Positions 15,798-64,000 of a stretch of DNA of 64,000 nucleotides are shown here, piece by piece (position 1 is the stretch's first letter; each line of letters opens with the position of its first letter). Under the pieces are notes generated by a model. It worked only from the letters and a program-made list of their open reading frames with translations. It had not been told where the DNA came from and did not search any database. This stretch comes from Ignavibacteriaceae bacterium (GTDB lineage Bacteria; Bacteroidota; Ignavibacteria; Ignavibacteriales; Ignavibacteriaceae). A program made the translations under genes and the position numbers. The stretch lies in NCBI GenBank assembly GCA_019638025.1, contig JAHBUO010000003.1, positions 53,194 through 117,193 of the forward strand, given 5' to 3'.

Positions 15798-15810
15798 AGT
15801 AAAATTATAC

Positions 15811-30124: not shown

Positions 30125-30152
30125 AGGTTATGATTTCTTAATCTAAGTTAAA

Positions 30153-32168: not shown

Positions 32169-32178
32169 TTTGTACCTC

Positions 32179-42097: not shown

Positions 42098-42112
42098 CTA
42101 AATTCATCCTTC

Positions 42113-45019: not shown

Positions 45020-45021
45020 AT

Positions 45022-46878
45022 TTAATCTGACTTCTTACCAAATTCTGAATCTAAAGGGATTAATTTGGTTACAATGAATGCAGGAATTGTTGCGAGACAA
45101 ACCCAAACAAAAAAGTGTTGGTAGCCTATTAATTCTTGTAACCAACCACTAAACATTCCGGGGAGCATCATTCCAAGAGCCATAAATCCGGTTGCTATTG
45201 CATAATGTGCCGTTTTATGTTCTCCATCGGATATGTATATCATATATAACATATAAGCTGTAAATCCAAGTCCATACCCAAATTGTTCTACTGCAACACA
45301 AAGATTTATAATGAAAAAATTATTTGGCAGTGCGTATGAAAGATAAACATAGACTAAATCAGGTAGATTTATCGCGAGTACAAATACCCAAATCCATTTT
45401 TTTAATCCATCACGAGCAGCTAAAAATCCACCTAATATTCCGCCAAGAGTCAGCGAAATAATTCCAACAGTTCCGTATACAAAGCCAACTTGACCTGTTG
45501 TTAATCCTAATCCTCCTACCTCAAGTGAATCAAGCAGAAATGGAGAGGCTAATTTAACAAGTTGTGCTTCAGCGAATCGGTAAAGAAGTAAAAATCCTAA
45601 AATATAACCGATTTTCTTCTTCTTAAAGAAAAGAGCAAAGGTCCTAAAGAATTCTTTAAAAATTCCGGATGAGTTTGAGCTTACAACAGGTACATCATCT
45701 TTTGAATAAGGAAGAATAATTTTATGATAAACAAAAAAGAGAACGAATAATATTCCTAGCACTGAAAATGTAACAATCCATGCTAACGGAATATTGCCCG
45801 ACCGAGCATGAAATACTGCGAAAGTATTAGTTTTAAGTTTTGGATCAAGTTGAATTATTGCTATAGCTACTTTGTCCCAATTCTTCTCATTAAAGACCAA
45901 TCTGGCACCTTCAACCAAAGAGATACTGTTATCTCCCGTCTCCCGACCAAAATTAACCACTACACTCTCTTCAGGCTTTTGTGAAAGTTTAAAGTAAACC
46001 ATCCCAATATTTCCTGTTAAATCTGACGTAGATTTTTCAGGTAATTCGGGACCAAAACTTTCTTTTAAGAACTTTTCGAGGGGCGCAATTAGAGTTTCAC
46101 TGAACCATGAGGGAGATTCACTTTTTGCCTCTGTAACTTTTTGAGTCTCCTCGAAATAAAAATGATTTTCTGTATTCCACTTCTTTGCAAATTGTAGAAT
46201 TGAATCAACCGAATTTTTTTCGATTAGAGATGTAGAGAGTTCAACTTTTTGAGGGAAGGAAACCACCTCGAGTGAAAGTTTATCATCAAACCGAATTGAG
46301 TCCGGATGATAAAACACTGTATTGGAATATTTTGGATTTACGCTTACCTCAATCTCTTTTGGAGCTAATCCACTATTACTTTCGATATATCCGGCAAGAA
46401 TTACTAAAATTCCCTGGCCGGTAATCATCGCCAATCGATAAAATGTACTTCTTATTCCAACAAACCATGCTTGGTCATGTTTAGAAAGACCAATCATGTA
46501 AAAACCATCAGCGGCAATATCATGAGTGGCAGAACTAAAGGCAAGCAACCAAAAAAATGCGAGTGTATATTGGAAAAAATTATCTACGGGAATTGTAAAA
46601 GCAACTCCGGCTAATCCGGCACCAATTATCAATTGCATAGTTACTATCCAAAACCTTTTTGTTTTGAATAAATCAACTACCGGACTCCATAATGGTTTAA
46701 TTACCCAAGGAAGATATAACCAACTTGTATAAAGTGCTATGTCCGTATTTGAAATCCCTAATCTCTTATACATAATAACTGAGACAGTCATAACAACTAT
46801 ATACGGAATACCTTCAGCAAAGTATAAGGATGGAATCCATGCCCAGGGGTTACGTTTATTGGGTTTTTCGTTACTCAT
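45022..46878 (-). CDS. ampG: AmpG-family muropeptide MFS permease with a ~195-aa hydrophilic insertion
   Basis: N-terminus typical of AmpG homologs (PWAWIPSLYFAEGIPY, LPWVIKPLWSP.VD, SATHDIA.DG). Hydrophobic helices flank a long soluble stretch at about residues 167-362. Confidence 0.85.
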   Translation of the reverse strand: MSNEKPNKRNPWAWIPSLYFAEGIPYIVVMTVSVIMYKRLGISNTDIALYTSWLYLPWVIKPLWSPVVDLFKTKRFWIVTMQLIIGAGLAGVAFTIPVDNFFQYTLAFFWLLAFSSATHDIAADGFYMIGLSKHDQAWFVGIRSTFYRLAMITGQGILVILAGYIESNSGLAPKEIEVSVNPKYSNTVFYHPDSIRFDDKLSLEVVSFPQKVELSTSLIEKNSVDSILQFAKKWNTENHFYFEETQKVTEAKSESPSWFSETLIAPLEKFLKESFGPELPEKSTSDLTGNIGMVYFKLSQKPEESVVVNFGRETGDNSISLVEGARLVFNEKNWDKVAIAIIQLDPKLKTNTFAVFHARSGNIPLAWIVTFSVLGILFVLFFVYHKIILPYSKDDVPVVSSNSSGIFKEFFRTFALFFKKKKIGYILGFLLLYRFAEAQLVKLASPFLLDSLEVGGLGLTTGQVGFVYGTVGIISLTLGGILGGFLAARDGLKKWIWVFVLAINLPDLVYVYLSYALPNNFFIINLCVAVEQFGYGLGFTAYMLYMIYISDGEHKTAHYAIATGFMALGMMLPGMFSGWLQELIGYQHFFVWVCLATIPAFIVTKLIPLDSEFGKKSD

Positions 46879-46894
46879 ATTTTCTCCGTAAACT

Positions 46895-47818
46895 TTATAA
46901 TTCTATCTTCTTCAATGCCATTAGAATTGCTCCGTATGCCGGAGAAAAATCTTTCTCTTTAATGATTACATCATCAAATTCAATTACAGTTTTTTCTATA
47001 AACTTTTGCGATAAAATATTTTCTGAACTTAATATTCCACCGATTAAGGATAAATAAAATGGTCTATCGGAAATTTTATTCTTCATAGCTTTAATGTGAA
47101 GAACTAATTCCGAACTTTCCTCTTCAACAATTGATACTGATACAGGGTCTCCTTTTGAAGCAGCTTCCAATACTACAGGAGCAAATGAAGCTATATCAAA
47201 ATTGTTTTTATAAATTTCGGTGATTAATAAATCTGTTGATTCGATATTGCATCTTTCGTTCAATAACTGCTTTAATAAAGTTTCTCGACCACGTCCATCA
47301 AAACACTTTGATGCAGCCACTAGTCCTTTTTTGCCGATTGAATAACCGCTTCCCTCATCACCAATAAATCTTCCGAATCCACCAACTCGGTAAACATTAT
47401 CACTTGAATCTTTACCAAACATTATTGAACCCGTACCGGCAATTAATATACTCCCTGCCTTACCCGAAAATGCACCTTCTAAAGCAATTCTCGCATCGGA
47501 TTCTACGAAAAATTTAACGTTTTTAACTTCTTTGTTTTGCAAGTAAGAATTGAAATCATTTTCTAATCTTTCCGCATCTGTTCGTCTACCGGCACCGGTA
47601 GTTCCTAATAAAATTGTTGAAAGATCATTTATAGAAGTGTTTGCTTCAGTCAAGGTTTGAAGGATTAAATTATATATTGTATCAGAGACAACCTGAGTCC
47701 CGAGCATTAGAAAGTTTGAAGGTCCTCCAAATGACTCTAAAATCACTTTTCCGGTTTCATCTGCTAAAATTGCGTGTGTCTTTGTACCCCCACCGTCTAT
47801 ACCAATTACATATTGCAT
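46895..47818 (-). CDS. BadF/BadG/BcrA/BcrD-type ATPase; N-acetylglucosamine (or MurNAc/GlcNAc) kinase
   Basis: ASKHA-fold start VIGIDGGGTKTH and a second phosphate loop LIAGTGS. The size (307 aa) and its position upstream of ampG fit this call. Confidence 0.8.
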   Translation of the reverse strand: MQYVIGIDGGGTKTHAILADETGKVILESFGGPSNFLMLGTQVVSDTIYNLILQTLTEANTSINDLSTILLGTTGAGRRTDAERLENDFNSYLQNKEVKNVKFFVESDARIALEGAFSGKAGSILIAGTGSIMFGKDSSDNVYRVGGFGRFIGDEGSGYSIGKKGLVAASKCFDGRGRETLLKQLLNERCNIESTDLLITEIYKNNFDIASFAPVVLEAASKGDPVSVSIVEEESSELVLHIKAMKNKISDRPFYLSLIGGILSSENILSQKFIEKTVIEFDDVIIKEKDFSPAYGAILMALKKIEL

Positions 47819-47901: not shown

Positions 47902-48069
47902 TCAGCAATAAGCTATAAAAAAAATAAGTACAAAAAGAGAAATCACGAGCAGAAATATTTGAAATATTTCTTTCCCTTTTGCTTTCTCAAAAATTGATTT
48001 ATCTCTATGGATATCTTTTTGATAATCCCCTTTTTCAACTGACCATTTAGTCTTCTTTTTGCTATTCAT
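47902..48069 (-). CDS. Possible 55-aa tail-anchored membrane peptide (hypothetical)
   Basis: Own translation: MNSKKKTKWSVEKGDYQKDIHRDKSIFEKAKGKEIFQIFLLVISLFVLIFFIAYC*. It is the only open frame in an otherwise empty 388-nt gap. There is no homology evidence. Confidence 0.3.
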   Translation of the reverse strand: MNSKKKTKWSVEKGDYQKDIHRDKSIFEKAKGKEIFQIFLLVISLFVLIFFIAYC

Positions 48070-48206
48070 AATTTTGTCTAAATATTTTATTGTACAAGTT
48101 AGCTATAAATATTCAAACATCGAATGTTTACAATCACACAAAAATATTTGAAGTGATTTTTTACGATATTATCTTTCGCAATAAAGAAAGATAATTTAGG
48201 TAATAG

Positions 48207-49670
48207 ATGACAGCATCTGAAGAGTTTTTTGTATCGTACAGAAAAAATATTTTAGGAATTGAGCAAGAGTTTGATTCTCCATTTGGAAAAAAGAAGATTA
48301 TTTATGCCGACTGGATTGCAAGTGGAAGACTCTACACTCCAATAGAAAAAAAGATGACTGAATTATTCGGTCCTTTTGTTGGGAATACTCATTCTGAAGC
48401 CAGTATTACCGGCGTTACAATGACCCACTCATATCTTTCAGCTCGAGAAATAATTAAAGAACATGTTAATGCCAATAAAGACGATATAATTATTACAGCC
48501 GGCTCCGGAATGACCGGTGTTGTGAATAAATTGCAAAGAATATTAGGACTTCGAATTCCCGAGCAATTAAAGGATTTTACTAATCTTCCTAAGGAATTAA
48601 AACCAGTTGTATTTATAACTCACATGGAACATCACTCTAATCAAACGTCATGGTTAGAAACAATTGCTGATGTTATAATCCTTGAACCTGATGAATTGGG
48701 TCTTGTGAATCCCGAATCTCTTAAAAAAGAATTAGAAAAGTTTTCTGATAGAAAATTAAAAATTGGTGCTTTTACATCGTGTTCAAATGTAACAGGGATT
48801 AGGACCCCCTACCATCAACTTGCAAAAATTATGCATCAAAATAATGGATATTGTTTTATCGATTTTGCTTGTTCAGCACCCTATGACCCAATAAATATGC
48901 ACCCATCAGATGAACTTGAAAAATTGGATGCAATCTTTTTTTCTCCTCATAAATTCTTAGGTGGACCGGGAACACCCGGTGTTTTAATATTTGATTCCAA
49001 ATTATATCATAACAAAATTCCTGATAACCCCGGTGGAGGAACAGTTGATTGGACTAACCCATGGGGACAACATAAATTCGTAAACAGTATCGAAGCACGT
49101 GAAGATGGTGGAACACCTCCTTTTCTTCAAACAATAAAAGCCGCACTTGCAATTAAACTTAAAGAAGAAATGACTTCCGAAAAAATTGTTAAACGAGAAG
49201 AAGAATTAGTTAAAATTGTTTTTGATGAACTTGAACAAATTAGTTCTTTGCACATTTTAGCCGCACACATAAAACATAGAATAGGAGCAATTTCATTCTA
49301 TGTTGACAATATTCATTATAATTTACTAGTAAAAATTCTTAATGATAGATATGGTATACAAGTAAGAGGGGGTTGTTCTTGTGCAGGAACTTATGGGCAT
49401 TATTTACTTCATGTTGACCAAAATTATTCAAATAAAATAACAGAAAAAATTAGTCATGGTGACCTTTCAGAAAAACCGGGATGGGTGCGACTTTCGCTAC
49501 ATCCAACTATGAGCAACGATGAAGTATATTTTATCACTTCAGCCATTAAAGAGACAATTTTGAATATTGATGTTTGGAATAAGGATTACAATTATGATAT
49601 TCACACAAACGAATTTTTCCACAAAAGTCAATCTGCTAATGATTTTGATTTTATTAAGAAATGGTTCTAA
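48207..49670 (+). CDS. Class V-fold PLP-dependent enzyme (cysteine desulfurase/selenocysteine lyase-like)
   Basis: Fold-type I pattern with the PLP-lysine motif FFSPHKFLGGPGTPGVL and ITHMEHHSN upstream. Confidence 0.8.
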   Translation: MTASEEFFVSYRKNILGIEQEFDSPFGKKKIIYADWIASGRLYTPIEKKMTELFGPFVGNTHSEASITGVTMTHSYLSAREIIKEHVNANKDDIIITAGSGMTGVVNKLQRILGLRIPEQLKDFTNLPKELKPVVFITHMEHHSNQTSWLETIADVIILEPDELGLVNPESLKKELEKFSDRKLKIGAFTSCSNVTGIRTPYHQLAKIMHQNNGYCFIDFACSAPYDPINMHPSDELEKLDAIFFSPHKFLGGPGTPGVLIFDSKLYHNKIPDNPGGGTVDWTNPWGQHKFVNSIEAREDGGTPPFLQTIKAALAIKLKEEMTSEKIVKREEELVKIVFDELEQISSLHILAAHIKHRIGAISFYVDNIHYNLLVKILNDRYGIQVRGGCSCAGTYGHYLLHVDQNYSNKITEKISHGDLSEKPGWVRLSLHPTMSNDEVYFITSAIKETILNIDVWNKDYNYDIHTNEFFHKSQSANDFDFIKKWF

Positions 49671-49750
49671 GATTAATTTCCCTTATTTGGATTTTAATCT
49701 CTGTTAATTAAGTTTGCAAATTATTTACAATAAAAGAAAAGACTAAAAAA

Positions 49751-50248
49751 ATGGCATCCAATCACTCATTTGATATAGTTTCAGAAATCGATTTTCAAGA
49801 GGTCGATAATGCAGTTAATCAAACAATAAAAGAAGTTTCTCAACGTTATGATTTGAAAGACTCTCACACCACAATTGAACTTAACAAAAAAGAAAAGTTC
49901 ATTCTTATAAATACTAAAGATGATTACTCAAACAAACAAAGTATTGATATACTTCAGTCTAAATGCATTAAAAGAAGTATTGCAATTAAAGCTTTAAAAA
50001 TTGAGGAACCGGAACCCGCCAGCAATGGACGGCTACGTCAAAAGATTAATTTACAAAGCGGGATTTCAAAGGAGAACGGGAAAATTCTTACTAAAATGAT
50101 TAAAGACTCCAAATTAAAAGTAAATGCTCAAATTCAAGATGAACAAGTCAGAGTTACTGCCCCAAAAATTGATGACCTTCAAGCAGTTCAGAAATTGATA
50201 AAAGAAGCTAATCTTGATTTTGCGGTTCAGTATGTAAATTATAAGTAA
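49751..50248 (+). CDS. yajQ: YajQ-family nucleotide (c-di-GMP)-binding protein (UPF0234)
   Basis: 165 aa with the characteristic start SFDIVSEIDFQEVDNAVNQ..KE...RYDLK. Confidence 0.88.
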   Translation: MASNHSFDIVSEIDFQEVDNAVNQTIKEVSQRYDLKDSHTTIELNKKEKFILINTKDDYSNKQSIDILQSKCIKRSIAIKALKIEEPEPASNGRLRQKINLQSGISKENGKILTKMIKDSKLKVNAQIQDEQVRVTAPKIDDLQAVQKLIKEANLDFAVQYVNYK

Positions 50249-50256
50249 ATTCGAGT

Positions 50257-50290
50257 AAGGTTGTCTGATTTTTTTAGACAACCTTTTATC
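50257..50290. terminator. Hairpin terminator between convergent yajQ and the dnaE remnant
   Basis: 10-bp stem AAGGTTGTCT/AGACAACCTT with a T-rich loop, followed by TTTTAT. It overlaps the stop codon of the minus-strand ORF. Confidence 0.7.
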
Positions 50291-51959
50291 CCACATAAGC
50301 ATAAATTAATTTTTGTGGTGTAAGTTCACCGATTCGCATAATATCTTCGTCGCGCGTGACCTCATTATCACCGTAATATTTATTATCCGCACTATCTTTA
50401 TGAAGCGAATTTTTAATCCCTTGACGAGAAAGAACTTCTAACTTATCTACAATTAAATTATTGCCACTCTCAGCATCAACTCTGCCTGTAACAATGTACG
50501 GTCCAAAAGAGTATGTCTGTTGTGCAAATTTAGAGTAAACTCTCGGAAATAAAACTGCCTCAAAGGTTCCTGTTAAGTCCTCCAACGAAAGGAATTTCAT
50601 AATTTCCCCTTTACTTGTTTTAATTCTCTTTGAAGTCATAAACCATCCGCGTAAACTAATTCTTTTGTTATGATAGTTTTTCATATCGGATGAATTTATT
50701 GTTTTATACTTTTTTAATTCTTCTGCAAAAAGTTCAAGCGGATGCTTTGATACCATATAATCGAAAGTCTCGTATTCCAACCTACATTTTTCTTCTATTG
50801 AATAGTCAACTAAAGTTTCAATTTCATTTTCCAGCTTTATAGTCTCGTTAAAAAAAAGATCGTTATATGAAGGGCTATAAATCTTTCTTGCTTTGAGGTA
50901 TACATGTAAAAGTCTCAATAGAGTTGGTCGTGTTTTCTGAAAGCAATCCATAGCCCCACATTGAATGAGATAAGTTGATTCAGCCATGCCGGTTTTTGTT
51001 CGAAGTAAAAAGTCAAGTAAGGAAGTATATTCTCCATTATATTCTCTTTCAGTTACAATATTTTCTGCCGTATTGCGTGACATATTCTTAATTGCCATTA
51101 ACCCGATTAGAATTGTATTATTACTTCCTTCATATTCATATTCACTTTTATTAATGCATGGCAAAACTATTGTAAGACCGCATCTTTTAGCTTCTTGAAT
51201 GTAAACAGCCGCAGAATAATAGCCACCTCCGTTACTAAGAACACTAGCCATGAACTCGGCGGTATAATGAGTTTTTAAATATGCTACTTGGAAAGAAAGA
51301 ATAGCAAAAGCTGCGCTATGAGCTTTACAAAAGGCATATCCGGCAAATGACTCCATCTGATTCCATAATAGGATAGCCTTATCTCGCTCCAAACCATTAT
51401 CATCACACGACCGGAAATACTTTTCCTGCATTCTTTCAATAACTTCACGAGAACGTACTTTACCACTCATTCCTCGCCTGAGTAAATCTGCATCAATTAC
51501 ACTTAAACCGGCTATTTGATTTGCAACTTTGATAACATCTTCTTGATAAATCATAACCCCATAAGTATTTCCAAGAACTTTTTCCATCTCAGGGAAAAGA
51601 TATTTTCGCTTTGTTTTATCACGATGACGAAGAATATACTCCTTCATCATCCCGCTTTCTGCAACTCCGGGACGGATAATTGAACTTGCCGCCACTACCA
51701 TCTCAAAAGTATCGGCCGTAAGCCGCCATAGCAATGACCGCATCCCGGGAGATTCTATATAAAAACAACCGATTGTTCTTCCTTCTTTTATTAGTTTAAT
51801 TGTTTCAGCATCTGAAAAAAGTTTTTCATAATCATAAATATCGAATTTTACTCTTTTGGTATTTCGAGGAATTGGCGGATAGAGTCTCGCAATGCGAGGA
51901 CCCGTAGTACCCATCCGACTATATAAACTATCTTTCCCGCTCTCCCTTAACATTTCCAA
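50286..51959 (-). pseudogene. dnaE: DNA polymerase III alpha (DnaE/DnaE2-type) C-terminal fragment; 5'-truncated, missing the PHP and palm N-terminal half
   Basis: The 557-aa ORF starts at TTG and aligns by eye only to the distal part of Pol III alpha: TIGCFYIESPGMRSLL, IIRPGVAESGMM, MIYQEDV, the HhH region FAGYAFCKAHSAAFA, and the OB-fold tail. The frame closes at a TAG (51993-51995) 11 codons upstream, and no other coding remnant lies before ftsZ. Confidence 0.7.
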
Positions 51960-52166
51960 CTGCTCTTTAAATAATAGTGTTCATTTGCCCACTATATTTA
52001 ATTGCTTTTAAGGTGAAAGTCAAGAGAATAACAAAAAAGTAGTTTCGTGTCAGCATGAAACTTCTATATATGGATTATAGTAAAAGTGAATTTGATTGAC
52101 TTTAATTTGAAAAGAGAGGAAATTTCAGTTAGCAATAATAAGTATTTGCGGTAAAGGAGAATTGAA

Positions 52167-52361
52167 ATGCAAGCCGAAGATGAAGTAGTATGGGTATGTC
52201 AATATTGTGGTATCCATAATACTGTTGATGTAGATTTTACGGTAAGCGGAAAGCTTGATTTTATTGAGGATTGTAGAATTTGTTGCAGACCAAATAGAAT
52301 CATCATAACTATTGATCCTGATGAAAATATATTTGTTGAAGCTCGCTATATTGATGAATAA
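52167..52361 (+). CDS. CPXCG-motif cysteine-rich mini-protein
   Basis: 64 aa with CQYCG...DCRICCRPN (four-Cys zinc-ribbon-like pattern). AAGGAG RBS upstream. Confidence 0.75.
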   Translation: MQAEDEVVWVCQYCGIHNTVDVDFTVSGKLDFIEDCRICCRPNRIIITIDPDENIFVEARYIDE

Positions 52362-52424
52362 ATAATTAAGCTATTATGCTTATTTTTAAATTATCTGCAA
52401 AATAATTTACAACTATAAGAATGG

Positions 52425-52454
52425 GGATTAATAATCTTAAAAGATTATTAATCC
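52425..52454. terminator. Perfect 14-bp inverted repeat between the convergent CPXCG gene and ftsZ
   Basis: GGATTAATAATCTT-AA-AAGATTATTAATCC. The ftsZ stop codon (52448-52450) lies inside the right arm. There is no clear U-tract on either strand. Confidence 0.5.
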
Positions 52455-53761
52455 ATAATCATTCTTAAAAATGCTGAACTGTCTTCTTCATCAATATTCT
52501 TATGTTGAGGAATTACTTTAGCTTCTTCTTTACGATTCTGTTCTAATGAATATTGCTTAATCTTCTCAGTACTAAATCCTGAAGAAAAATTTTCTTCTTC
52601 TTCATTTGCCTCAAACTGAAATTGAGAAACAGAACTATCCTTGGTCCCTTTTCTAAAAATAGTTGGGATATTTAAATCATCTTTATCTACTAAATTATTG
52701 TCAGCAGTGTAACCACTAAATATTTGATGAATCGGTGTTGATTTTGGTGGATTTACAACTTTCTTCTCTGCTGGTTTTTGTGAGCCCATTAAATTCTGTT
52801 TATCAAAACCGGTTGCAATAACAGTATAAGAGACATAATCATTCATATCTTCTTTTGTAACATATCCAAAAATAATGTTTGCTTCTTCGCCTACAGTTTG
52901 TTGAATAATATTATTGCCTTCGTGAATCTCCATCATTGTTAAATTATCAGATCCGGTAACATTGATTAACACATTCTTTGCTCCTTGTATACTAACTCCA
53001 TCTAATAATGGACTAGAGATTGCTTTTTGAGCTGCTTCAATTGCTCTGTGTTCACCACTTGCAATTCCACAACCCATAACAGCAACACCACTTTGATTCA
53101 TAACAGTTCTAACATCAGCAAAATCGACATTAATAATCCCGGGGATAGTGATTATATCGGCAATACCGCGTGTTGCTTCATACAATACTTCATTGGGTTT
53201 ATCAAACGATGAAGAAGCAGGAGTATTTTTATCTAGTATAGCTAAAATGCGTTCATTGGGGATAACAATTAAGCTATCAACAAATTGTTTTAATTCTTGA
53301 ATACCGCTTTCAGCATTTAAAGTTCTAATTCTTCCTTCCCATTTGAAAGGTTTTGTGACAACACCAACAACCAATGCTCCCAAGCTTTTTGCTATCGAAG
53401 CAACTACGGGAGCTGCACCGGTACCGGTTCCGCCACCCATGCCTGTTGTAATAAAAACCATATCACTACCACTGAGAATTTCAGCTATTTTCTCTCTGTC
53501 TTCTTCAGCAGCTTTTTTACCAATTTTAGGATCAGCACCTGCACCCAAACCTTTTGTTATTTTCACACCGATTTGTACTTTGTGCTGAGCATTACTTTTT
53601 TCGAGAACTTGTGCATCAGTATTTACGGCCACGTATTCAACTCCGTTCAATCCTCTCTTAATCATAGATTCTACAGCATTACAGCCGCCTCCACCAACAC
53701 CAACTACTTTTAAGATTGCAGTCATTGGTTGTGATCTGTCTATTGTGGCAAAACTAGGCAT
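52448..53761 (-). CDS. ftsZ: Cell division GTPase FtsZ
   Basis: Tubulin signature GGGTGTGAAPV, NTDAQ, and a long variable C-terminal linker. Confidence 0.98.
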   Translation of the reverse strand: MPSFATIDRSQPMTAILKVVGVGGGGCNAVESMIKRGLNGVEYVAVNTDAQVLEKSNAQHKVQIGVKITKGLGAGADPKIGKKAAEEDREKIAEILSGSDMVFITTGMGGGTGTGAAPVVASIAKSLGALVVGVVTKPFKWEGRIRTLNAESGIQELKQFVDSLIVIPNERILAILDKNTPASSSFDKPNEVLYEATRGIADIITIPGIINVDFADVRTVMNQSGVAVMGCGIASGEHRAIEAAQKAISSPLLDGVSIQGAKNVLINVTGSDNLTMMEIHEGNNIIQQTVGEEANIIFGYVTKEDMNDYVSYTVIATGFDKQNLMGSQKPAEKKVVNPPKSTPIHQIFSGYTADNNLVDKDDLNIPTIFRKGTKDSSVSQFQFEANEEEENFSSGFSTEKIKQYSLEQNRKEEAKVIPQHKNIDEEDSSAFLRMIMD

Positions 53762-53781
53762 TCTATATTCTCCTATTTAAT

Positions 53782-55032
53782 TTATAATTCATTGAAAAAT
53801 TCTCTAAATCGTGTCCACGATTCTTTTACAATATTCTTTTTAACTTTTTTAGATTTTGAAACAGCTCCAACATTAAGAACTTTTTGTCCTGGGATTCCCT
53901 TTATCAATCCTACTACAGTCGCAAACTCAGGTTTTTCCATTTCCACCACAGCGCCCGTAGAAAATTCTAACGGAATACCGATTCTGCAATGCATCCCAAA
54001 TACTTCTTCTGCTAATTCAGTACAACCTCTTAGCATTGAACCACCACCTGTAAGAACTATTCCGGCTTTAATTTTATTCCGTAAACCAACGCTTCTAATA
54101 TCATTATCAATCAGAGTAAAAAGTTCACGCATTCTTAAACTTATAATTTGAGTTAAAAGACTAATTGGAATTCTTGTGCTCCCTTTGCCTCCGACACCTC
54201 TAATCGTGATTTCTTCATCTCTGATGATTGCTGCTTCAGTAGCATAACCATGTTGTTTCTTTAATAACTCAGCTTCGGAAGTAACTATTCCAAGCGATTC
54301 TCTTATATCATTTGTTACTTGATTTCCGGCAACTCCAAATACTTTTGAATGTTTAATTGCTTTTTTATGAAGCACAGCTATATCAGTAGTTCCACCACCT
54401 ATATCAATCAGTAAAACTCCCAAATCTTTTTCACTATCATCTAAAACTGATGAACTTGATGCAATCGGTTGCAAAATATACTGTGCAACTTTAAATCCTG
54501 CTCTTTCAACTGACTTACGAATATTTTGGATAGCCGGAATTGCTGCCAAAACTATGTGATTACTCGCTTCCAGTCTTGTACCTGTCATTCCAATCGGATT
54601 GTCAATGTTGCCATTATAGTCAATGAAAAACTCTTCCGGAATTATGTGCAATATTTGTCTATCTGAAGGGATTGGAATTGTTCTTACATCTGCTTCCAAT
54701 CTTTGTAAATCTTCTTTAGTGATTTCATGTTCTTCATTAGTAATAGTCACATAATTTCGATGTCTGAGACTTGTAATATGCTCTCCGGCAACTCCGACAT
54801 TTAATTCTTGAACTTGAATTCCTGCTCTATTAGATGCAATTGCAACTGCACTCTGTATCGCCTCTGCTGTTTTTGAAATATTTGCCACCAAACCTCTGCT
54901 TAATCCTTCAGACGGGGCAACACCAAAGCCAAGAACTTTAAACTTCTCATTTTCAATTTGCTCAGCTATAACTGCGCAAACTTTGGTTGTACCTAAATCT
55001 AATCCTGCTACAATATTATTTTTCATCATCAA
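53782..55032 (-). CDS. ftsA: Cell division protein FtsA
   Basis: Actin-like ATPase blocks (GLDLGTTKVCAV, DIGGGTTDIAV, VLTGGGS). Positioned between ftsQ and ftsZ. Confidence 0.96.
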   Translation of the reverse strand: MMMKNNIVAGLDLGTTKVCAVIAEQIENEKFKVLGFGVAPSEGLSRGLVANISKTAEAIQSAVAIASNRAGIQVQELNVGVAGEHITSLRHRNYVTITNEEHEITKEDLQRLEADVRTIPIPSDRQILHIIPEEFFIDYNGNIDNPIGMTGTRLEASNHIVLAAIPAIQNIRKSVERAGFKVAQYILQPIASSSSVLDDSEKDLGVLLIDIGGGTTDIAVLHKKAIKHSKVFGVAGNQVTNDIRESLGIVTSEAELLKKQHGYATEAAIIRDEEITIRGVGGKGSTRIPISLLTQIISLRMRELFTLIDNDIRSVGLRNKIKAGIVLTGGGSMLRGCTELAEEVFGMHCRIGIPLEFSTGAVVEMEKPEFATVVGLIKGIPGQKVLNVGAVSKSKKVKKNIVKESWTRFREFFNEL

Positions 55033-55787
55033 ATTCCTGTGAGCTGATTATTACCGATAAATAGACTTTCACTATATCTTAAATCTATATAATCCGATGT
55101 CTTGATCATCGAGGTATAATTCTCTGTCGATTTTAACAGCTCATATAATACATAAATTTTTTTCACTTCGTCATTTTTTCCCAAAAGTATAACCGGTTTT
55201 AGTCCCGATAAATAGATAATTATTTCGTTACCGTTTCTTAGGTTTATTTCCGATAAATTATTCGCAAAATCACTACTAATATTTTTTGATGTATACACAA
55301 TTTTCTTTGAAATCTTTAATTCTTCAGACTTAACTGATTGATTTATTTTAATTTCTTTTAATGTTGCATTAGTAATTACCGGATAATCAATCATCAAACT
55401 ATTATTTTCGATATTTAGTATCTCATACGAGTTAGTTACTAAATAATTCTTTCCATCATAGTTTAAAAGAGCAAATATTTTCTTTTCATCAACTTGAACT
55501 GTCACAGATTTATCTGCATTTAATTCAAGTTTTACTGATTCTACGTATGGATGATTCTCAAATTTTTCTTTAATTAAACGGAGACTAAGTTGACGGCTAA
55601 TTGCAACATTATCTAAACCGGTCATCAACAAGTAATCTCGCTCAGTGAGCATTAAATTACCTTCAACTTCAACTTTTGAGAACACTTCTACGTTGTTTTT
55701 TTGTGACTGAAAAATTGTTAAAAAAACAAGTATGCAAGTTAAGATAGAAAAAAGAGTGATACTAATAATTTTATCTTTTTTAGTCAT
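55029..55787 (-). CDS. ftsQ: Cell division protein FtsQ/DivIB-like (POTRA)
   Basis: N-terminal TM plus a POTRA-like region. Synteny murC-ftsQ-ftsA and overlap with the ftsA start. Confidence 0.8.
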   Translation of the reverse strand: MTKKDKIISITLFSILTCILVFLTIFQSQKNNVEVFSKVEVEGNLMLTERDYLLMTGLDNVAISRQLSLRLIKEKFENHPYVESVKLELNADKSVTVQVDEKKIFALLNYDGKNYLVTNSYEILNIENNSLMIDYPVITNATLKEIKINQSVKSEELKISKKIVYTSKNISSDFANNLSEINLRNGNEIIIYLSGLKPVILLGKNDEVKKIYVLYELLKSTENYTSMIKTSDYIDLRYSESLFIGNNQLTGI

Positions 55788-55793
55788 CTTTTT

Positions 55794-57164
55794 TTACTTT
55801 TTTAGACTTTCAACAAACTTTTCACCATACTTCCATATATCACCGGCACCCATCGTTACAATAATATCCCCGGCTTTAGCATTATCTTCAAGAACTTTAA
55901 CAACTTCATTTTTATCTTTAACATATATAACATTTTTATGTCCGAATTTTTTTGCTGCGTTGCTTATTAACTCACCTGAAACTCCTTCAATGGGGGTTTC
56001 ACGTGCAGGATAAATATCTGTGCAAATAAATAAATCCGAATTTAAAAACGACCTGCCGAATTCATTATAAAAATCCTTCGTTCTTGAATATAGATGTGGT
56101 TGAAATACTGCGACTAATCTTCTATTCCAACCCGAACGAATTCCGGCTAATGTTGCTGATGTTTCTGTTGGATGATGGGCATAATCATCAACTACCATAA
56201 TTTCTTTATTAAATTTTACCTCAAATCTTCTATAAACTCCGCTGAATTTTTCCAAAGATTTTTTAATTACAGTAAATTCGACACCCAATTCAATTCCAAC
56301 ACAAACTGCAACCAATGAATTTTTAATATTGTGTACACCGGGGATATTAATTTTAATTTCCCCTATGTTTTCTCCTTTGTACATAACAGAGTAGCTACTA
56401 CTAAACTCATTATGCATGATGTTAATTGCTCTAATATCAGCTTGTGGCGAAGTTCCGTATGTAATTACTTTTTTATTAATCTGAGGTAAAATATCTTGAA
56501 GTGCCGGTTCGTCAAGACATAATGTAACAAAACCATAGAAAGGCACTTTATTTGCAAATTCAATAAATGCTGACTTTATATCTTCTAAATCGGCATAAGT
56601 ATCTAAATGCTCTTTTTCAAGAGTTGTGATTGCAGCAATTGTTGGTGTAAGTTTCAAGAATGTTCTATCAAATTCATCGGCTTCAACAACTATAAACTCC
56701 CCATTACCAAGTCGGGCATTTGTACCACCTAATCCACTTAATTTTCCACCGACGATAATTGTGGGGTCAATATTAGCTTCAGTTAACACAAGTCCAACCA
56801 TCGAAGTTGTGGTAGTTTTCCCGTGTGTTCCTGCAATCCCGATACCATATTTCATTCGCATACACTCAGCAAGCATTTCTGCACGCTTGATTATTGGAAT
56901 TTTTTTCTGAATGGCTGCTTGAACTTCCGGATTATCCAGAGTTACAGCCGAAGAATAAACCAACACATCAACATCAGCAAGATTTTCAGCGAAATGGCCT
57001 TCATAAATCTTGATGCCTAAATCACTCAAACGTTGTGTAATTTCCGATAAGTTTTTATCTGAACCGGAGATTTCAAAGCCTTGATTTAGCAAAATCTCGG
57101 CAATACCGCTCATTCCTATTCCACCAATTCCAACAAAATGTACTTTTTTAATATTCTTAAACAT
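55794..57164 (-). CDS. murC: UDP-N-acetylmuramate--L-alanine ligase
   Basis: FVGIGGIGMSGIAE N-terminus, P-loop GTHGKTTTTSM, and DDYAHHP. Confidence 0.97.
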   Translation of the reverse strand: MFKNIKKVHFVGIGGIGMSGIAEILLNQGFEISGSDKNLSEITQRLSDLGIKIYEGHFAENLADVDVLVYSSAVTLDNPEVQAAIQKKIPIIKRAEMLAECMRMKYGIGIAGTHGKTTTTSMVGLVLTEANIDPTIIVGGKLSGLGGTNARLGNGEFIVVEADEFDRTFLKLTPTIAAITTLEKEHLDTYADLEDIKSAFIEFANKVPFYGFVTLCLDEPALQDILPQINKKVITYGTSPQADIRAINIMHNEFSSSYSVMYKGENIGEIKINIPGVHNIKNSLVAVCVGIELGVEFTVIKKSLEKFSGVYRRFEVKFNKEIMVVDDYAHHPTETSATLAGIRSGWNRRLVAVFQPHLYSRTKDFYNEFGRSFLNSDLFICTDIYPARETPIEGVSGELISNAAKKFGHKNVIYVKDKNEVVKVLEDNAKAGDIIVTMGAGDIWKYGEKFVESLKK

Positions 57165-57171
57165 ACTTTTT

Positions 57172-58272
57172 CTAATTTTTCTCTGCTAATGCAATAACTT
57201 GTTTTGCTATTTCTTCAGCAGCCAAAGGTTTTCCTAATTTTTTACTATTCTTTTTTAGTTCGATTAAAAGACTATCATTTTTAATCAACTCTAATACTGT
57301 ATTTGCAAAATCACTTTTCAAATCCCGGTCTTCCAATAATATTGCTGCATTCTCATCCACTAAAGATTTAGCATTGAAGTATTGATGATTCTCAGCTACA
57401 TTTGGTGAAGGTATTAGCAGTGATGCTATTCCAAGCGTTGTAATCTCAGCAATTGTAGTCGCTCCCGCTCGAGCAATAACTAAATCAGCTGCTGAATAAA
57501 CTGATGCTATATCTTCAATAAATGAGAATAACTTTACAGTTTTTGATTCATGCTTAGAATATTTTTCATAATAAGTTGAACCAGTTTGCCATACTAATTG
57601 AATATTTTCCTTATTAAATAATTCGAGTGATGATTCTATTGCTTCATTAATTGATTTTGCCCCTAAACTTCCACCAACAATTGCAATCGTCTTTTTGTTT
57701 AAGTCAAGATTCAATTTTTGGGATGCTGTTGATTTATCACTCAAAGCAATATCAATTCTAATAGGATTTCCGGTTACATAACACTTATTCTTATTAGCAA
57801 AATGTTTAATCGAATTTTCAAAACTTAGATGAATTTGCTCAGCATGTTTTTCAAGTAACTTCGTAGTTTTACCGGGGAAACTGTTCTGTTCAAGCAACAC
57901 TATTTTAGAGCCTAAAATTTTTGCCATCCATAAAGCCGGACCTGCCACATATCCGCCACTACCAATCGATACAGTCGGTTTAAACTTAAAATTGATTATA
58001 AATGATTGAATCAAACTCACAAATAATTTTAGTGGAAATAAAAAATTCTCTAAAGTGAATTTTCTCGCAAAACCTTTAATCCAGATTGCACTAAACTTAA
58101 ACCCCATTTGAGGAACCACTCTACCTTCAATTTTTTTCTTTGTTCCTACGAATAAAATATCACATTCAGGAACAGATGCTCTTATTTGCTGAGCAACAGC
58201 AATTGCCGGGAAAAGGTGTCCTCCGGTTCCACCACCGGCAAATAGAAAACGATATCTATTTACATTTTTCAA
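57172..58272 (-). CDS. murG: Undecaprenyldiphospho-muramoylpentapeptide beta-N-acetylglucosaminyltransferase
   Basis: GGTGGHLFPA motif, GT28 architecture, and dcw synteny. Confidence 0.96.
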   Translation of the reverse strand: MKNVNRYRFLFAGGGTGGHLFPAIAVAQQIRASVPECDILFVGTKKKIEGRVVPQMGFKFSAIWIKGFARKFTLENFLFPLKLFVSLIQSFIINFKFKPTVSIGSGGYVAGPALWMAKILGSKIVLLEQNSFPGKTTKLLEKHAEQIHLSFENSIKHFANKNKCYVTGNPIRIDIALSDKSTASQKLNLDLNKKTIAIVGGSLGAKSINEAIESSLELFNKENIQLVWQTGSTYYEKYSKHESKTVKLFSFIEDIASVYSAADLVIARAGATTIAEITTLGIASLLIPSPNVAENHQYFNAKSLVDENAAILLEDRDLKSDFANTVLELIKNDSLLIELKKNSKKLGKPLAAEEIAKQVIALAEKN

Positions 58273-59387
58273 ATTTCAGCAGTCTCAATTTGTGGTGGTA
58301 AATTTTCTTTAATATTACTAACTCCAATATTTATTAGTATACCAATCGATATACTCATAATAATAAGCGAAGTTCCGCCATAACTGATAAAAGGCAAAGG
58401 CAATCCTGTTGTTGGAATCAATCCTGATGCAACTGCAATATTCACTAGTGCATATGTGATAAAAGATAATGAAATAGCTATTCCTAATACTTGACCAAAT
58501 TTGTCTTTCGCGTTTTTAGCTATAATAATTCCCGCAATAAAAACTCCTAAATAAATCAGTAGAACGAAAGTGGCTCCTACAAACCCACGTTCTTCGCCGA
58601 GGATAGCAAAGATAAAATCGCCATAAGCTTCAGGAAGAAATAGATTTCGCTGGCTACTATGCCCAAAGCCGACGCCCCAAATTCCGCCACTCCCGAGCCC
58701 ATACAAAGCTTGTTTAACTTGGGAATTTATATGTCCTCCATTCATTAAGCTTTCCACAAAATTCATAATTCTGCCTCTGGAATGTGAGAATAACATAGCA
58801 ATAGAAATTGATACAATCCCGCTAATAACTAAAGAGAAAAAAATGTGAATGAATCTTGCACCACCTACATACAAAACAATCATTGAAATAAGTAAGAGTA
58901 AACTTGCATTACTAACATTCGGTTGAGCAAATATTAGCCCACACGTAAACAAAATCCACAGAAGTGCATATCTGAATCCTTCCTTATACTTTTTTATCTC
59001 TTCTCCTTTAGACTCAATTAATGCAGCCAAGTGAATAAATAAAAATAATTTTGCTAACTCTGCAGGTTGAAAATTTATAAATCCAAGATCAATCCAACGT
59101 CTTCCCCCCTTGACAGAAGCTGAGATTATAAGGGTTAATACCAATATAGTAACAATTATTAAAATCATTGGTTTACTGTAATTTTTGTAATACTCATACG
59201 GAAGGAATGAAAATAAAACTAAAAATCCGACAGCAAGAAATGCTTTATACAAATGACTATTAAACATATAAAATTGATTTGCAAATTTTGTATCACTATA
59301 AGTGCTACTTGCACTCATCACAAGATATAAACCAATTAGAATCAGAATAAATGAACCAAAGAAAATTGATATCGATAATTTTTTCAT
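58269..59387 (-). CDS. ftsW: SEDS-family peptidoglycan glycosyltransferase FtsW
   Basis: Polytopic SEDS pattern (QPAELAK, LPFISYGGTS). The track start at 59483 overlaps murD by 95 nt. The ATG at 59387 (MKKLSISIFF...) lies 1 nt after the murD stop. Confidence 0.93.
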   Translation of the reverse strand: MKKLSISIFFGSFILILIGLYLVMSASSTYSDTKFANQFYMFNSHLYKAFLAVGFLVLFSFLPYEYYKNYSKPMILIIVTILVLTLIISASVKGGRRWIDLGFINFQPAELAKLFLFIHLAALIESKGEEIKKYKEGFRYALLWILFTCGLIFAQPNVSNASLLLLISMIVLYVGGARFIHIFFSLVISGIVSISIAMLFSHSRGRIMNFVESLMNGGHINSQVKQALYGLGSGGIWGVGFGHSSQRNLFLPEAYGDFIFAILGEERGFVGATFVLLIYLGVFIAGIIIAKNAKDKFGQVLGIAISLSFITYALVNIAVASGLIPTTGLPLPFISYGGTSLIIMSISIGILINIGVSNIKENLPPQIETAEI

Positions 59388-59388
59388 A

Positions 59389-60747
59389 TTATAAACTCTC
59401 AACAGCTTTCTTAAATACTTCCCCTCGATGTTCATAATTGTTGAACATGTCAAAGCTTGCACACGCCGGTGAAAGCAGAACAATATCGCCTTCAGAAGCT
59501 AAGAGATTACTATTGCTAACACATTCTTCAAGTGTTTCAGCAATTTGAACAGGAACAAAACTATTGAAGTACTCAAATACTTTATCGGAGGAACTCCCGA
59601 TTGCATAGATTTTCTTGACTTTCGACTTAACAAGATTTTCAATTTTGCTGTAATCGTTCCCCTTATCTAGTCCACCAAGAATCAATATAATTGGATTTTC
59701 AAAACTATTCAGAGCATACCAAACTGAATCAACATTTGTAGCTTTTGAATCATTAATAAATCTTACTCCATTAAAATTTCTGACAAACTCTAGGCGATGC
59801 TCAACTCCCGGGAAAGTAATTAGCCCTTTAAGAATATCTTCATTAGAGATGCCAATTTGTTTTGCGGCAATTACAACTGCCATTGCATTAGCATAATTAT
59901 GCTCACCTTTAAGTGAAATATCACTAAGTTTACATCGAAATTTTTCGATATTGTTTTCGTTATATACTAACTCTGATTCAGTTAGGAATGCACCATCTTC
60001 AATATGAGTCTTGGTTGAAAATTTGAAAACTCTCGCATTTATTTTTAGCGAATTACTTCGAAGTAAGTCATCATCCTCATTTATTATGCAAACTTCGCTT
60101 TGTGTCTGATTCATAAATATTCTGAGTTTTGATTCAGTATATTTTTCAAAACTGTTATCGTATCGATTTAAATGATCAGGTGTAATATTCAATATTACTG
60201 AAATTCTTGGTTTGAAGTTTTCAATACTATCCAATTGGAAACTTGAAACTTCAAGTGCTGCATAATCATATTTTTCATCTCGCAAAATTACATCCGAAAA
60301 AGCAGTTCCAATATTCCCGCAAGCAACAACTTTTTTTATCGCTGTTTTTAAAATATGTTCCATTAAAGAAGTTGTTGTTGTTTTTCCATTTGTACCTGTT
60401 ATGGCAATAGTAACTCCATTAAAATAGTGTGATGCGAATTCAACTTCACTTATTACTCTAATCCCTTTTGCGATAAATTCCTTAACTATTTTTGAGTCTG
60501 TAGGAACACCCGGACTAACTATAACAAATGATGCATCAAATACTCTTTCAGAGTGCTCAGAGAATTCATAATCAATTTGTTCAGCACGAAGTTGGTTTAC
60601 CGCATTCATCATTTTAACTTCATCGGAAATATCGCTGACAAATGGAATTGCCCCTAATCTCTTTAGCAATCTTGCTGCAGATATACCGCTCCTCGCTGCT
60701 CCTAGTACAGTTACTTTTAATCCGGATATTTCTTCTTTATAATTCAT
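59389..60747 (-). CDS. murD: UDP-N-acetylmuramoylalanine--D-glutamate ligase
   Basis: VLGAARSG Rossmann start, P-loop GTNGKTTT, and DSKATN. Confidence 0.96.
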   Translation of the reverse strand: MNYKEEISGLKVTVLGAARSGISAARLLKRLGAIPFVSDISDEVKMMNAVNQLRAEQIDYEFSEHSERVFDASFVIVSPGVPTDSKIVKEFIAKGIRVISEVEFASHYFNGVTIAITGTNGKTTTTSLMEHILKTAIKKVVACGNIGTAFSDVILRDEKYDYAALEVSSFQLDSIENFKPRISVILNITPDHLNRYDNSFEKYTESKLRIFMNQTQSEVCIINEDDDLLRSNSLKINARVFKFSTKTHIEDGAFLTESELVYNENNIEKFRCKLSDISLKGEHNYANAMAVVIAAKQIGISNEDILKGLITFPGVEHRLEFVRNFNGVRFINDSKATNVDSVWYALNSFENPIILILGGLDKGNDYSKIENLVKSKVKKIYAIGSSSDKVFEYFNSFVPVQIAETLEECVSNSNLLASEGDIVLLSPACASFDMFNNYEHRGEVFKKAVESL

Positions 60748-60750
60748 ATC

Positions 60751-61875
60751 TTATCTAAGTTTAAATGAAGCTAAACTTACAATTGCAAGAATGATTGCGA
60801 TTATATAAAATCGAATCACAATCTTTGGTTCAGGCCAACCCACCATCTCAAAATGATGATGAATCGGCGCCATCTTAAAAACACGCTTTCCTTCACCAAA
60901 TCTTTTCTTAGTATATTTGAAATAGACTCTTTGGATGATCACTGAAACTGTTTCCATAAAAAAGACACCCCCTAAAATTGGGATAAGCAATTCTTTCTTT
61001 ATAAGAACAGCTAAAATTCCAAAAGCTCCACCCAAAGCGAGTGAGCCGGTATCACCCATAAAAATTTGAGCAGGATAGAAATTAAACCACAAAAAACCCA
61101 ATCCGGCACCAATCAAAGCTGCAATGAATACTGTTAACTCACCAGTTCCCGGTAGATAGATTATATTTAAATACTTCGCATAAATTGCGTTACCGCTCAT
61201 ATAAGCAAGGACAGCTAACGCCAGCATTACAATTGTTGTGACACCGATTGATAATCCGTCTAAACCATCGGTGAGATTAACAGCATTTGATGTGGCTGTA
61301 ATTATGAATATCACCATTGGGATATACAATATTGAAAAATCAAGATTTACATTTTTAAAAAATGGAAGAGTAGTGAATGTGTTTATTGAGTCAAAATTTG
61401 ACCCGAATATAGTTGGGAAAAAGTAAATCATACTACCGACTAATAATCCAACAACAACTTGTCCAAGTAATTTGTATCGTGCTATCAAACCATTTGGAAA
61501 CTTCTTTACTACTTTCAGATAATCATCTAAAAATCCAACTCCACCTAATAATAGTGTTCCGGTTAAAATTAGAATTATGTAAATACTAAGAATGTCACCC
61601 CATAATAATACAGGGACAACAACTGAGAACAGTATAATTAGCCCGCCCATCGTTGGTGTACCTGCTTTTGACCAATGATTTTTGGGACCAATCTCTTTCT
61701 TTGCTTCACCAATTTGATGCTTCTGGAGAAGTTTGATAATTTTTGGTCCGATATAGAGTGATAAAAACAAAGCCGTAATAGCTGCTAAAGCAGAACGGAA
61801 CGTTAAGAAACGGAAGATATCAAATCCCGGCGGATCAAATTTCACGTTAATATAATCAAACAAGTAGTAGAGCAT
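60751..61875 (-). CDS. mraY: Phospho-N-acetylmuramoyl-pentapeptide transferase
   Basis: NAVNLTDGLDGL, MGDTGSLALGG, and APIHHHFE. Confidence 0.97.
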   Translation of the reverse strand: MLYYLFDYINVKFDPPGFDIFRFLTFRSALAAITALFLSLYIGPKIIKLLQKHQIGEAKKEIGPKNHWSKAGTPTMGGLIILFSVVVPVLLWGDILSIYIILILTGTLLLGGVGFLDDYLKVVKKFPNGLIARYKLLGQVVVGLLVGSMIYFFPTIFGSNFDSINTFTTLPFFKNVNLDFSILYIPMVIFIITATSNAVNLTDGLDGLSIGVTTIVMLALAVLAYMSGNAIYAKYLNIIYLPGTGELTVFIAALIGAGLGFLWFNFYPAQIFMGDTGSLALGGAFGILAVLIKKELLIPILGGVFFMETVSVIIQRVYFKYTKKRFGEGKRVFKMAPIHHHFEMVGWPEPKIVIRFYIIAIILAIVSLASFKLR

Positions 61876-63262
61876 CTATCCGATTCTTTCTTTCAATGCA
61901 TTTACAAAATCTTCCATTTTCATCCCACGTGACCCTTTTACAAGAATAGTTGAGTTTTCAAATTCGAACTTTTTCAAATATGCAAATAGTGATTTTCTTG
62001 AAGAAAAGTACCGAGTAATCATCTTTAAGTTTTCTATCGTTTTGTAAAGTGCCTGCATATTTTTACCGATAGGTAAGACTTCATCAATATTTAATTTCTT
62101 TATTACTTTTGCGAGTTGGGTGTGTAAATTTTCCTGATTTCGCCCAGTTCAGACATATCTCCTAAAACTTCCACCAATCTTTTTAGGGAAAATATTTATA
62201 CTATCTAAAACTATGAGAGCAGCAATCATTGAATCAGGATTAGCATTATAAGTATCATCAATCAGAACCATCTTTTTATATTTTGTTACATTCAATCTTT
62301 GTTTTGATGGAAGTAATTTTTTTATTGCTGTAGTCAAATCACTTTTCTTTAAACCAACATGATTTGCAATCGCAGAAGCAACAAAGACATTGTGAGCACT
62401 ATGAAATCCATATAGAGGGACGTTAACTTTTAGATTAAGTTTTGGAGAGGTTATATTAAGTGTATAAAGTCCGGAATTATTATCCATTTCAGTTGAGCCT
62501 GAATACTCCGCAGTATTATTCATCATACTATAAGTAATTTTATTCTGAAAATTTGTACCAATTCTTTTAAGAAGAGATCATCAAGATTAATAAATACTTT
62601 TCCGTTAACGTTGGTATTATTGAATAAATTTACTTTTTCTTTCAGTACATTTTTAGATTTAGGAAACTCAATTGCGAATTGCCAATATTTGTTATCACAG
62701 AATAATCCGGTTTAGCAATTTTCGATGTGTAACCGATCTCGCCAAAATGATTTGTCCCAACCTCTAGAGACAAAAAGTCATCATTCTGTTTCGCAGAAAA
62801 TATTGTTAACGGAACACCTATATGATTATTGTTGTTAAGTGAAGTTCCTGTAACACGATATTTTTCTTTTAATAATGAAATTAAAATATCCTTTGTGGTC
62901 GTCTTACCCACGCTTCCGGTTATACAAATTACTTTTGCTTTTAGTTTACTTCTCCAGAAACTTGCTAATTCTCCCAATGCTAATGTTGTATTCGGTACAG
63001 TAATAATCGGTAACTTTAAATTGATAAAATTCTTAATCTGCTTCTTATTTATAATTATTGCGGATGCTCCACTATTCACTGCAGATTCAACAAACTTATG
63101 TCCATTGAATTTTTTACCTTGTATAGCAATGAATAAGGCTCCTTTTTCAATCTTACGAGAGTCTATCGATATCGATTTATAATCACCTATCAAATTGGCA
63201 TTATAAAGCTCTGCCCCCGATAGATTAAATAGATCGTTAATATTTATACAAAGCTTTGACAT
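61876..63262 (-). pseudogene. murF: UDP-N-acetylmuramoyl-tripeptide--D-alanyl-D-alanine ligase, interrupted by about four single-base indels (three track ORFs)
   Basis: ORFs 62642-63262, 62149-62526 and 61876-62058 are consecutive MurF segments (P-loop GSVGKTTTK; DDTYNANPDSM; ILVKGSRGMKME). The missing conserved stretches (IEF.KSKNVLKEK..., DDSLLKRIGTN..., EVLGDMSELGE) are readable in alternative frames across the breaks. Confidence 0.85.
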
Positions 63263-64000
63263 TATTTGACTGCCAATTCATTATTTAATTGATTAATAAG
63301 CTTAAGCGTTTCCTCTTTATCTGAGAAATAAAATTTTTCTTTACCAATTATCTGATAGTTTTTCATGTCCTTTTTCCTTATTAATACGACTGAACCATCT
63401 GGTGATTCATTTATAATAGTTGATTGTAACTTCACTACGATTTTTATTACAACAAAATTTTCTATCAAAATTCCTGACTTTATATCTTCGATTATTTGAT
63501 CTTCGTTTTCGGTACGTGGATTATCATTTGTGATGATCACTTTATCACTCAGTAACGATGCTATTTTCCCCATAATTGGTCTTTTGATTTTATCCCTATC
63601 CCCACCACACCCCATAACTGTGTAGAGTCGAAAGTCGTTACTAATAATTTGCCTTATCGATGTCAAAGCTTTATCAAGGCTATCAGGAGTATGCGAATAA
63701 TCGATAATAATTTTTTTATTGTTGAAGTGAATAACTTCAAATCGACCCGGGACATGTGGGGTTTTTGCAATACCTTCGATTATTTTCTCAGCGGAAATAC
63801 CGCATTTTAGTGCCGCGATGAATGCCGCAGCAATGTTGTATGCATTAAAACTTCCGATAAGTGAAGTTTTAATTTCATATACAGTAGATTGATTGCGAAG
63901 CTTGAATGACGTTCCCTCTAAATCAAAAGAAATTTCTGATATTATAAAATCAGAATCAGCATTTGTTCCATACGAAATCTTATTTGCTTTCGTATCTTTT
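63262..64000 (-). CDS. murE: UDP-N-acetylmuramoyl-L-alanyl-D-glutamate--2,6-diaminopimelate (or L-Lys) ligase, C-terminal part; 5' end outside the window
   Basis: My translation is open from 63999 to the stop at 63262: ...GSFNAYNIAAA...GRFEV...IIDYSHTPDSL...GCGGDRDK.KRP.MG...NDNPRTE. The track lists only 63262-63666 (internal TTG). The stop overlaps the murF ATG (TAATG). The C-terminal motifs look frameshift-scrambled (see findings). Confidence 0.9.
   Translation of the reverse strand, partial: KDTKANKISYGTNADSDFIISEISFDLEGTSFKLRNQSTVYEIKTSLIGSFNAYNIAAAFIAALKCGISAEKIIEGIAKTPHVPGRFEVIHFNNKKIIIDYSHTPDSLDKALTSIRQIISNDFRLYTVMGCGGDRDKIKRPIMGKIASLLSDKVIITNDNPRTENEDQIIEDIKSGILIENFVVIKIVVKLQSTIINESPDGSVVLIRKKDMKNYQIIGKEKFYFSDKEETLKLINQLNNELAVK

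Follow-up and report, generated by a model that had tools for sequence, protein, structure and literature searches.

The genome of Ignavibacterium album was obtained by 454 sequencing, followed by PCR gap closure and a frameshift review with GeneTack, after which "2 ORFs with frameshift mutations" were reported (PMC3362086). Neither murE nor murF is mentioned in that genome paper (PMC3362086). The window, by which we mean the whole 64-kb stretch of DNA analyzed here, matches I. album in its G+C content (about 34%) and in family-level taxonomy. For direct comparison, we used five contigs (L001–L005) from different assemblies and samples, namely, an NCBI MAG, two ENA assemblies, a JGI metagenome, and a Logan assembly. 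Their murE–murF–mraY segment resembles that of the window in its dcw gene order (in L001, mraZ-rsmH-ftsL-ftsI-murE-murF-mraY-murD-ftsW-murG-murC) and in the one-base overlap of the murE stop and murF start codons (TAATG). Unlike the window, these contigs carry uninterrupted murE and murF genes, whereas the window has 12 micro-patches that are private to it. The five contigs are mutually 100% identical over their 3- to 8-kb dcw overlap, and all of them encode, with identical protein sequence, an intact MurF of 462 aa (P0001, labeled as from an Ignavibacteriaceae MAG), which carries PF01225, PF08245, and PF02875. They may represent one clonal Ignavibacteriaceae lineage that recurs in bioreactor and sludge data sets, or they may come from related samples. 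Relative to these contigs, and to a further contig, L086, the window forms a separate lineage about 0.6% away.

Two known kinds of sequence damage are relevant to this locus. Consensus errors caused by low coverage or gap closure in finished genomes, for which the 454 and PCR gap-closure procedure used for I. album serves as an example, share with the window the concentration of frameshifts and miscalls in a short region of a clean assembly, as well as homopolymer length errors and patterns in which a base appears to "hop over" its neighbor; the +GGTG, +TTA, and −GC events of the window, however, are not typical homopolymer errors. Genuine bacterial pseudogenes share with the window the multiple frameshifts and the loss of conserved residues in a gene that is still recognizable. 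Unlike in pseudogenes, the changes in the window are not scattered but packed in 125 nt, the neighboring genes of the pathway are intact, and indel events are about as many as substitution events.

The dcw cluster and the interrupted murF gene

The end of the window holds, on the minus strand, a dcw cluster with the order murE (3' part), murF, mraY, murD, ftsW, murG, and murC, followed by a 252-aa ORF in the ftsQ position and by ftsA and ftsZ. The 3' part of murE (63262–64000) matches NF001126 and TIGR01085, the models for meso-DAP-adding MurE, and runs past the end of the window. The murF gene (61876–63262), encoding UDP-MurNAc-tripeptide--D-Ala-D-Ala ligase, lies between murE and mraY (60751–61875), which is its expected dcw position and the order seen in L001. 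The genes downstream had been described as intact in an initial annotation of this DNA, and mraY, murD, ftsW, murG, murC, ftsA, and ftsZ are indeed full length. The clean region begins with mraY (TIGR00445, 374 bits), which differs from its counterpart in L001 by six substitutions, all synonymous.

The initial annotation had also proposed that murF is split into three minus-strand ORFs, as is borne out by the ORF list and by matches to TIGR01143: ORF 1 (62642–63262; 206 aa) matches model positions 1–164, ORF 2 (62149–62526; 125 aa) matches positions 228–323, and ORF 3 (61876–62058; 60 aa) matches positions 373–418. The best single fragment scores 196.6 bits, which is below the family cut-off of 288.6 bits, and no uninterrupted MurF-family ORF above this cut-off is present at the locus. 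In a three-frame translation, the frame path across murF is 0>2>1>2>1, and the alternative-frame peptides that had been quoted (IEFPKSKNVLKEK...INLDD, VEVLGDMSELGE, and NQENLHTQLAKV) are found there; the net frame changes at the four breaks (−1, −1, +1, and −1) likewise agree with those first given. A frameshift-aware comparison, in which the window was searched with P0001 using tblastn, upheld the reconstruction in outline by placing residues 1–204 in frame −1 (63262–62651), residues 198–244 in frame −3 (62672–62535), and residues 233–462 in frame −2 (62571–61879). The three Mur-ligase domains (N-terminal, central ATP-binding, and C-terminal) are recognizable in order along the locus. When the frames are joined, the resulting protein is 96% identical to P0001 over 100% of its length, the next match being at 57%. 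A search with P0001 revealed no second murF within the 64-kb window.

The window is dense with genes, and every other gene examined is full length. Two overlapping ORF pairs that were considered as split genes proved to be unrelated, full-length neighbors: a metallophosphoesterase and an M1 peptidase (1834–2655 and 2561–4243), and a subtilase and a MetRS (30153–32219 and 32179–34227). Several secreted enzymes on the minus strand (13345–17703 and 27545–32219) have at their C terminus the Por_Secre_tail domain, a sorting signal that typifies cargo of type IX secretion; the carriers are a peptidyl-arginine deiminase, a GHL10 hydrolase, a subtilase, and a protein of 859 aa in which no further domain was matched. 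Another minus-strand region (40454–47818) encodes a GH3 hydrolase (547 aa), an MFS permease (618 aa), a BadF/BcrA-type ATPase (307 aa), and a 968-aa protein in which GH3 N- and C-terminal domains are fused to a beta-lactamase-fold domain, all of them intact. Judged by its Pfam matches, this cluster could serve the recycling of cell-wall sugars and peptidoglycan, and it would fit an organism that both makes and recycles peptidoglycan.

A stand-alone gene of 555–557 aa (50286–51959, minus strand) corresponds to the C-terminal half of the DNA polymerase III alpha subunit, aligning to positions 589–1064 of 1146 and comprising the finger and HhH domains. A PHP or palm half is absent from the upstream region, which is occupied by a zinc-ribbon gene (64 aa) on the opposite strand and, beyond it, by ftsZ; no intein-like N terminus is visible in the gene itself. 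The gene is kept with the same boundaries in three related contigs (L086, L088, and L089), and comparison with L089, which is 95.8% identical, gave 39 synonymous and 14 nonsynonymous codon differences; the gene looks selected.

Twelve patches in murE and murF

Lesions were called from pairwise DNA alignments of the window to L001, both residue-level and gap-favoring, and these calls rest on a comparison lineage that is 0.6% divergent, no other assembly of the exact strain having been found. The MurD and MurG proteins of the window, which have strain-specific residues, have no exact-protein match on record elsewhere, and the same applies to two further window proteins; the exact-protein matches of MraY all come from the other lineage (L002 and L004). 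A 42-mer taken from an undamaged central part of murF, made degenerate at two strain markers, gave 0 matches in the metagenome collection, which shows that this species is not represented there at the locus.

The window and L001 are 98.7% identical over 8.2 kb, and the DNA identity to the relatives outside the patches is ~99.4%. At each of the 113 points of difference, the five other contigs agree with one another, and the change is private to the window. All indels and all clusters of adjacent changes fall in the 12 micro-patches, which together cover 125 nt of the ~1.4 kb from 63468 to 62070. In order along the minus strand, patches 1–6 are at 63468–63465, 63447–63415, 63379–63362, 62771–62768, 62733–62732, and 62674–62649, and patches 7–12 are at 62576–62568, 62194, 62176–62169, 62153–62150, 62142–62133, and 62075–62070. 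The alignment to L001 contains 16 indel columns, all of them at 63446–62141, and no indels occur in 61999–55758 (compared with L001) or in 48046–60248 (compared with L086). The comparable sequence beyond the error zone, about 14.5 kb, has 0.6% divergence and no indels. The chance that at least 14 indel events would all fall within 1.4 of 16 kb is about 1e-14.

In murF, the patches make up two zones. The first (62568–62771) starts with GGTT>GTCT at 62771–62768 (V165S) and AA>GT at 62733–62732 (E177G). Break 1, at 62673–62672, reads CATCTT>CAATT (TC>A); the initial annotation had placed it near 62671 (CAA_TT) and had taken it for a simple one-base loss, whereas the 1-nt loss is accompanied by a substitution. 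It is followed by T>C at 62662 (L201P) and by an in-frame loss of TGG at 62650, which deletes Gly206. Break 2 had been placed at GATGA_TCT (62577); the alignment puts it 8 nt downstream, at about 62569, where A5 has become A4 next to a CCT>CTC swap at 62576–62574 (P231L). With this site, the peptide first read as DDSLLKRIG should read DD(P/L)FLKRIG.

The other murF zone (62070–62194) comprises A>T at 62194 (K358N), break 3 at 62175–62170, a TTC>TCT swap at 62153–62151 (F371S), break 4 at 62141–62134, and GCTA>ACCT at 62075–62071 (L398P). Break 3 had been interpreted as one extra G, but the change is ATTGCAGTT>ATTGGTGGAAGTT, that is, a 4-nt gain with a substitution (C>GTGGA, +4). For break 4, the proposed loss of one A gives the right net change (−1) but not the right event, since A5 has become A3 and a G has become GG. 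The description of murF as carrying four single-base indels therefore captures their net effect only; the lesions are complex, and changes in homopolymer length account for only about half of the events. The 3-nt deletion at 62650 and the patches at 62771–62768, 62733–62732, 62194, 62153–62150, and 62075–62070 had escaped notice. Because the murF indels sum to −2, the gene is broken into three ORFs.

We compared the affected residues with 80 MurF homologs. The residues struck in the first murF zone are 85–100% conserved among these proteins. Gly206, which is deleted in the window, is a Gly in 80/80 homologs, and the state of the window at V165, L201, G206, and F371 is found in 0/80. At one position, the window has an inserted MurF residue where 80/80 homologs have none.

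The damage extends into murE (63468–63362), a gene that the initial annotation had placed outside the problem. The murE zone (63362–63468) is private to the window in the comparison with the five identical contigs and consists of AAGC>TTGA at 63468–63465 and two groups of indels, one at 63447–63415 (A6>A5, C>G, +TTA, and −GC; net 0) and one at 63379–63362 (−GC, A4>A5, G>A, and A4>A5; net 0). Because each group sums to 0, the murE ORF stays open, with two internal segments out of frame. In the nominal frame, comparison with the MurE of L001 and with 74 homologs shows the replacements R440V, A443L, and I444Q, and the AGKGHE motif is read as RKKDMK (A460R, G461K, G463D, H464M, and E465K). R440, A443, and I444 are invariant in the 74 homologs, and the altered residues of AGKGHE (A, G, G, H, and E) are conserved in 73/74. 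The Glu of this motif aligns with Glu-468 of Escherichia coli MurE, which, together with Asp-413 of the DNPR motif, binds the amino group of the substrate (PMC3829189). The DNPR motif is present in the window, and AGKGHE is regained once 18 nt are swapped for the bases of the relative.

Replacing the 125 patch nucleotides with the bases of the relative yields a 462-aa MurF that differs from P0001 only at Y102F, H419Y, and T421S, and the same replacement restores a canonical MurE C terminus (...IKNRTEAINYAINESPDGSVVLIAGKGHENYQ...). The three remaining MurF changes, as well as the isolated changes A291T, R316L, D327E, T330A, and A455S in MurE, are at variable positions or are residues known from homologs. 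By our count, the isolated substitutions in murE and murF comprise 19 synonymous and 10 nonsynonymous changes, compared with 30 and 8, respectively, in the background; the scattered, selection-free changes of a pseudogene were not found. These isolated changes are mostly synonymous, and therefore purifying selection has acted on murE and murF for essentially all of the divergence. Outside the error zone, the sequences compared differ as ordinary strains do when purifying selection is at work.

The last 250 nt of the window, which ends inside murE (63750–64000, minus strand), contain eight substitutions, four synonymous and four nonsynonymous, which is somewhat above background; all are at variable positions. 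In L088 (GCA_003486905.1), two blocks of 8–9 adjacent private changes were observed at positions corresponding to 55634–55645 and 58111–58119 of the window. L088 is otherwise almost identical to L086, and the blocks differ from both L086 and the window; they look like small local assembly artifacts or micro-inversions in that MAG.

Origin of the lesions

The initial annotation had offered three options, namely, sequencing or assembly error, inactivation with a second copy elsewhere, and a non-clonal consensus, without choosing between them. The evidence favors the first, because the anomalies are private, are confined to 125 nt in 1.4 kb and strike invariant residues, and because the flanking sequence shows mostly synonymous strain divergence without indels. 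We estimate a probability of about 0.8 that the window has a local low-quality consensus over the end of murE and most of murF, rather than inactivated genes. From the location of the lesions, their privacy, and the invariant residues struck, all of which are read directly from the alignments, we infer that their origin is most likely technical.

If so, the stretch of ~1.4 kb (63468–62070) would have been built from poor-quality or very thin read support, leaving roughly 20 consensus errors packed into the 12 micro-patches. These errors would include homopolymer miscalls, bases hopping over a neighbor (TTC>TCT and CCT>CTC), small losses (−GC twice and −TGG), and small gains (+TTA and +GGTG). 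In murF, they would sum to −2 and produce the three ORFs, and in murE, two zero-sum groups would leave an open ORF with two conserved motifs out of frame. For several of the apparent swaps, one possible reading is that a homopolymer was undercalled and the same base was then called one or two positions later. This hop-over pattern presumably resembles the phasing errors of flow-based sequencers or of poor read tails. Two points argue against consensus error: classical homopolymer errors make up only about half of the events, and, in a finished genome in which predicted frameshifts had been re-sequenced, a check of the kind described for I. album (PMC3362086), some of the lesions might have been "confirmed."

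The alternative that fares best is that the mutations are real, so that murE and murF were inactivated very recently, for instance in a sub-population, or in a culture that wall-less growth, a helper organism, or a second copy kept alive. Taken at face value, the window does have a broken murF and codes for a MurE lacking AGKGHE, and nothing in it proves the sequence wrong; this alternative would gain weight if these particular frameshifts had been "confirmed" by re-sequencing. We nevertheless regard it as unlikely. Under neutral decay, one would expect few indels and single-base changes spread along the genes, whereas the window has at least 14 indel events and multi-base scrambles within 125 nt, and the isolated changes are still mostly synonymous. 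Two adjacent essential genes would have been struck, yet the genes from mraY through ftsZ are under purifying selection. A genome-collection scan returned an intact murF in 80/80 relatives (47–58% protein identity), each from a different genome, and the lack of a second murF within the window also speaks against real loss. A specific version of this alternative, in which a burst of clustered complex mutations over 1.4 kb recently ended MurE and MurF function in a free-living Ignavibacteriaceae strain, would be highly improbable.

The lesions could also stem from an assembly mosaic, in which reads of a diverged or degraded second template, such as a murE'–murF' pseudogene copy or another strain, were merged at this locus. 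Local mis-joining could look like what is observed, that is, short anomalous blocks with clean sequence between them. The patch sequences, however, resemble no homolog, the residues of the window being found in 0/80, and the patches, at 1–33 nt, are far shorter than reads. SNP-only strain mixtures, and a non-clonal consensus of this type, do not create frameshifts or indels such as these. Moreover, when 13-mers of the patches were sought elsewhere in the window, only chance AT-rich ones recurred and no meaningful second copy emerged; on this ground, both template switching and a duplicated source of the patch sequences were rejected. We consider a mosaic very unlikely.

Programmed recoding, by which ribosomal frameshifting or transcriptional slippage would restore a functional MurF, was rejected as next to impossible: although two of the frame changes are in short A runs, the changes are not conserved, being absent from the 99.4%-identical relatives and from the 80 homologs (47–58% protein identity), which have a single-frame murF, invariant residues are still replaced or deleted after frame correction, and we know of no precedent for four shifts in one gene without a conserved slippery site.

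Significance for the genome and the organism

As deposited, the genome would be counted among those without MurF, and the substrate-binding motif of its MurE would be scrambled although the ORF looks intact. Pathway reconstructions, surveys of the presence or absence of essential genes and of peptidoglycan, and protein databases may all be misled by such an error. The murE case illustrates how mutually cancelling indel errors can garble a protein and yet escape the detection of pseudogenes or frameshifts.

Were the lesions real, which is unlikely, it would be remarkable for a free-living bacterium to have lost two essential Mur ligases at once, and this loss would imply wall-less or dependent growth, an unrecognized bypass or second copy, or localized hypermutation acting on the dcw operon. 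On the sequence evidence presented here, the breakage of murE and murF is probably not a real feature of this genome. It is most likely a problem of data quality rather than of biology, and both murE and murF are most likely normal and intact in the organism from which the window derives.
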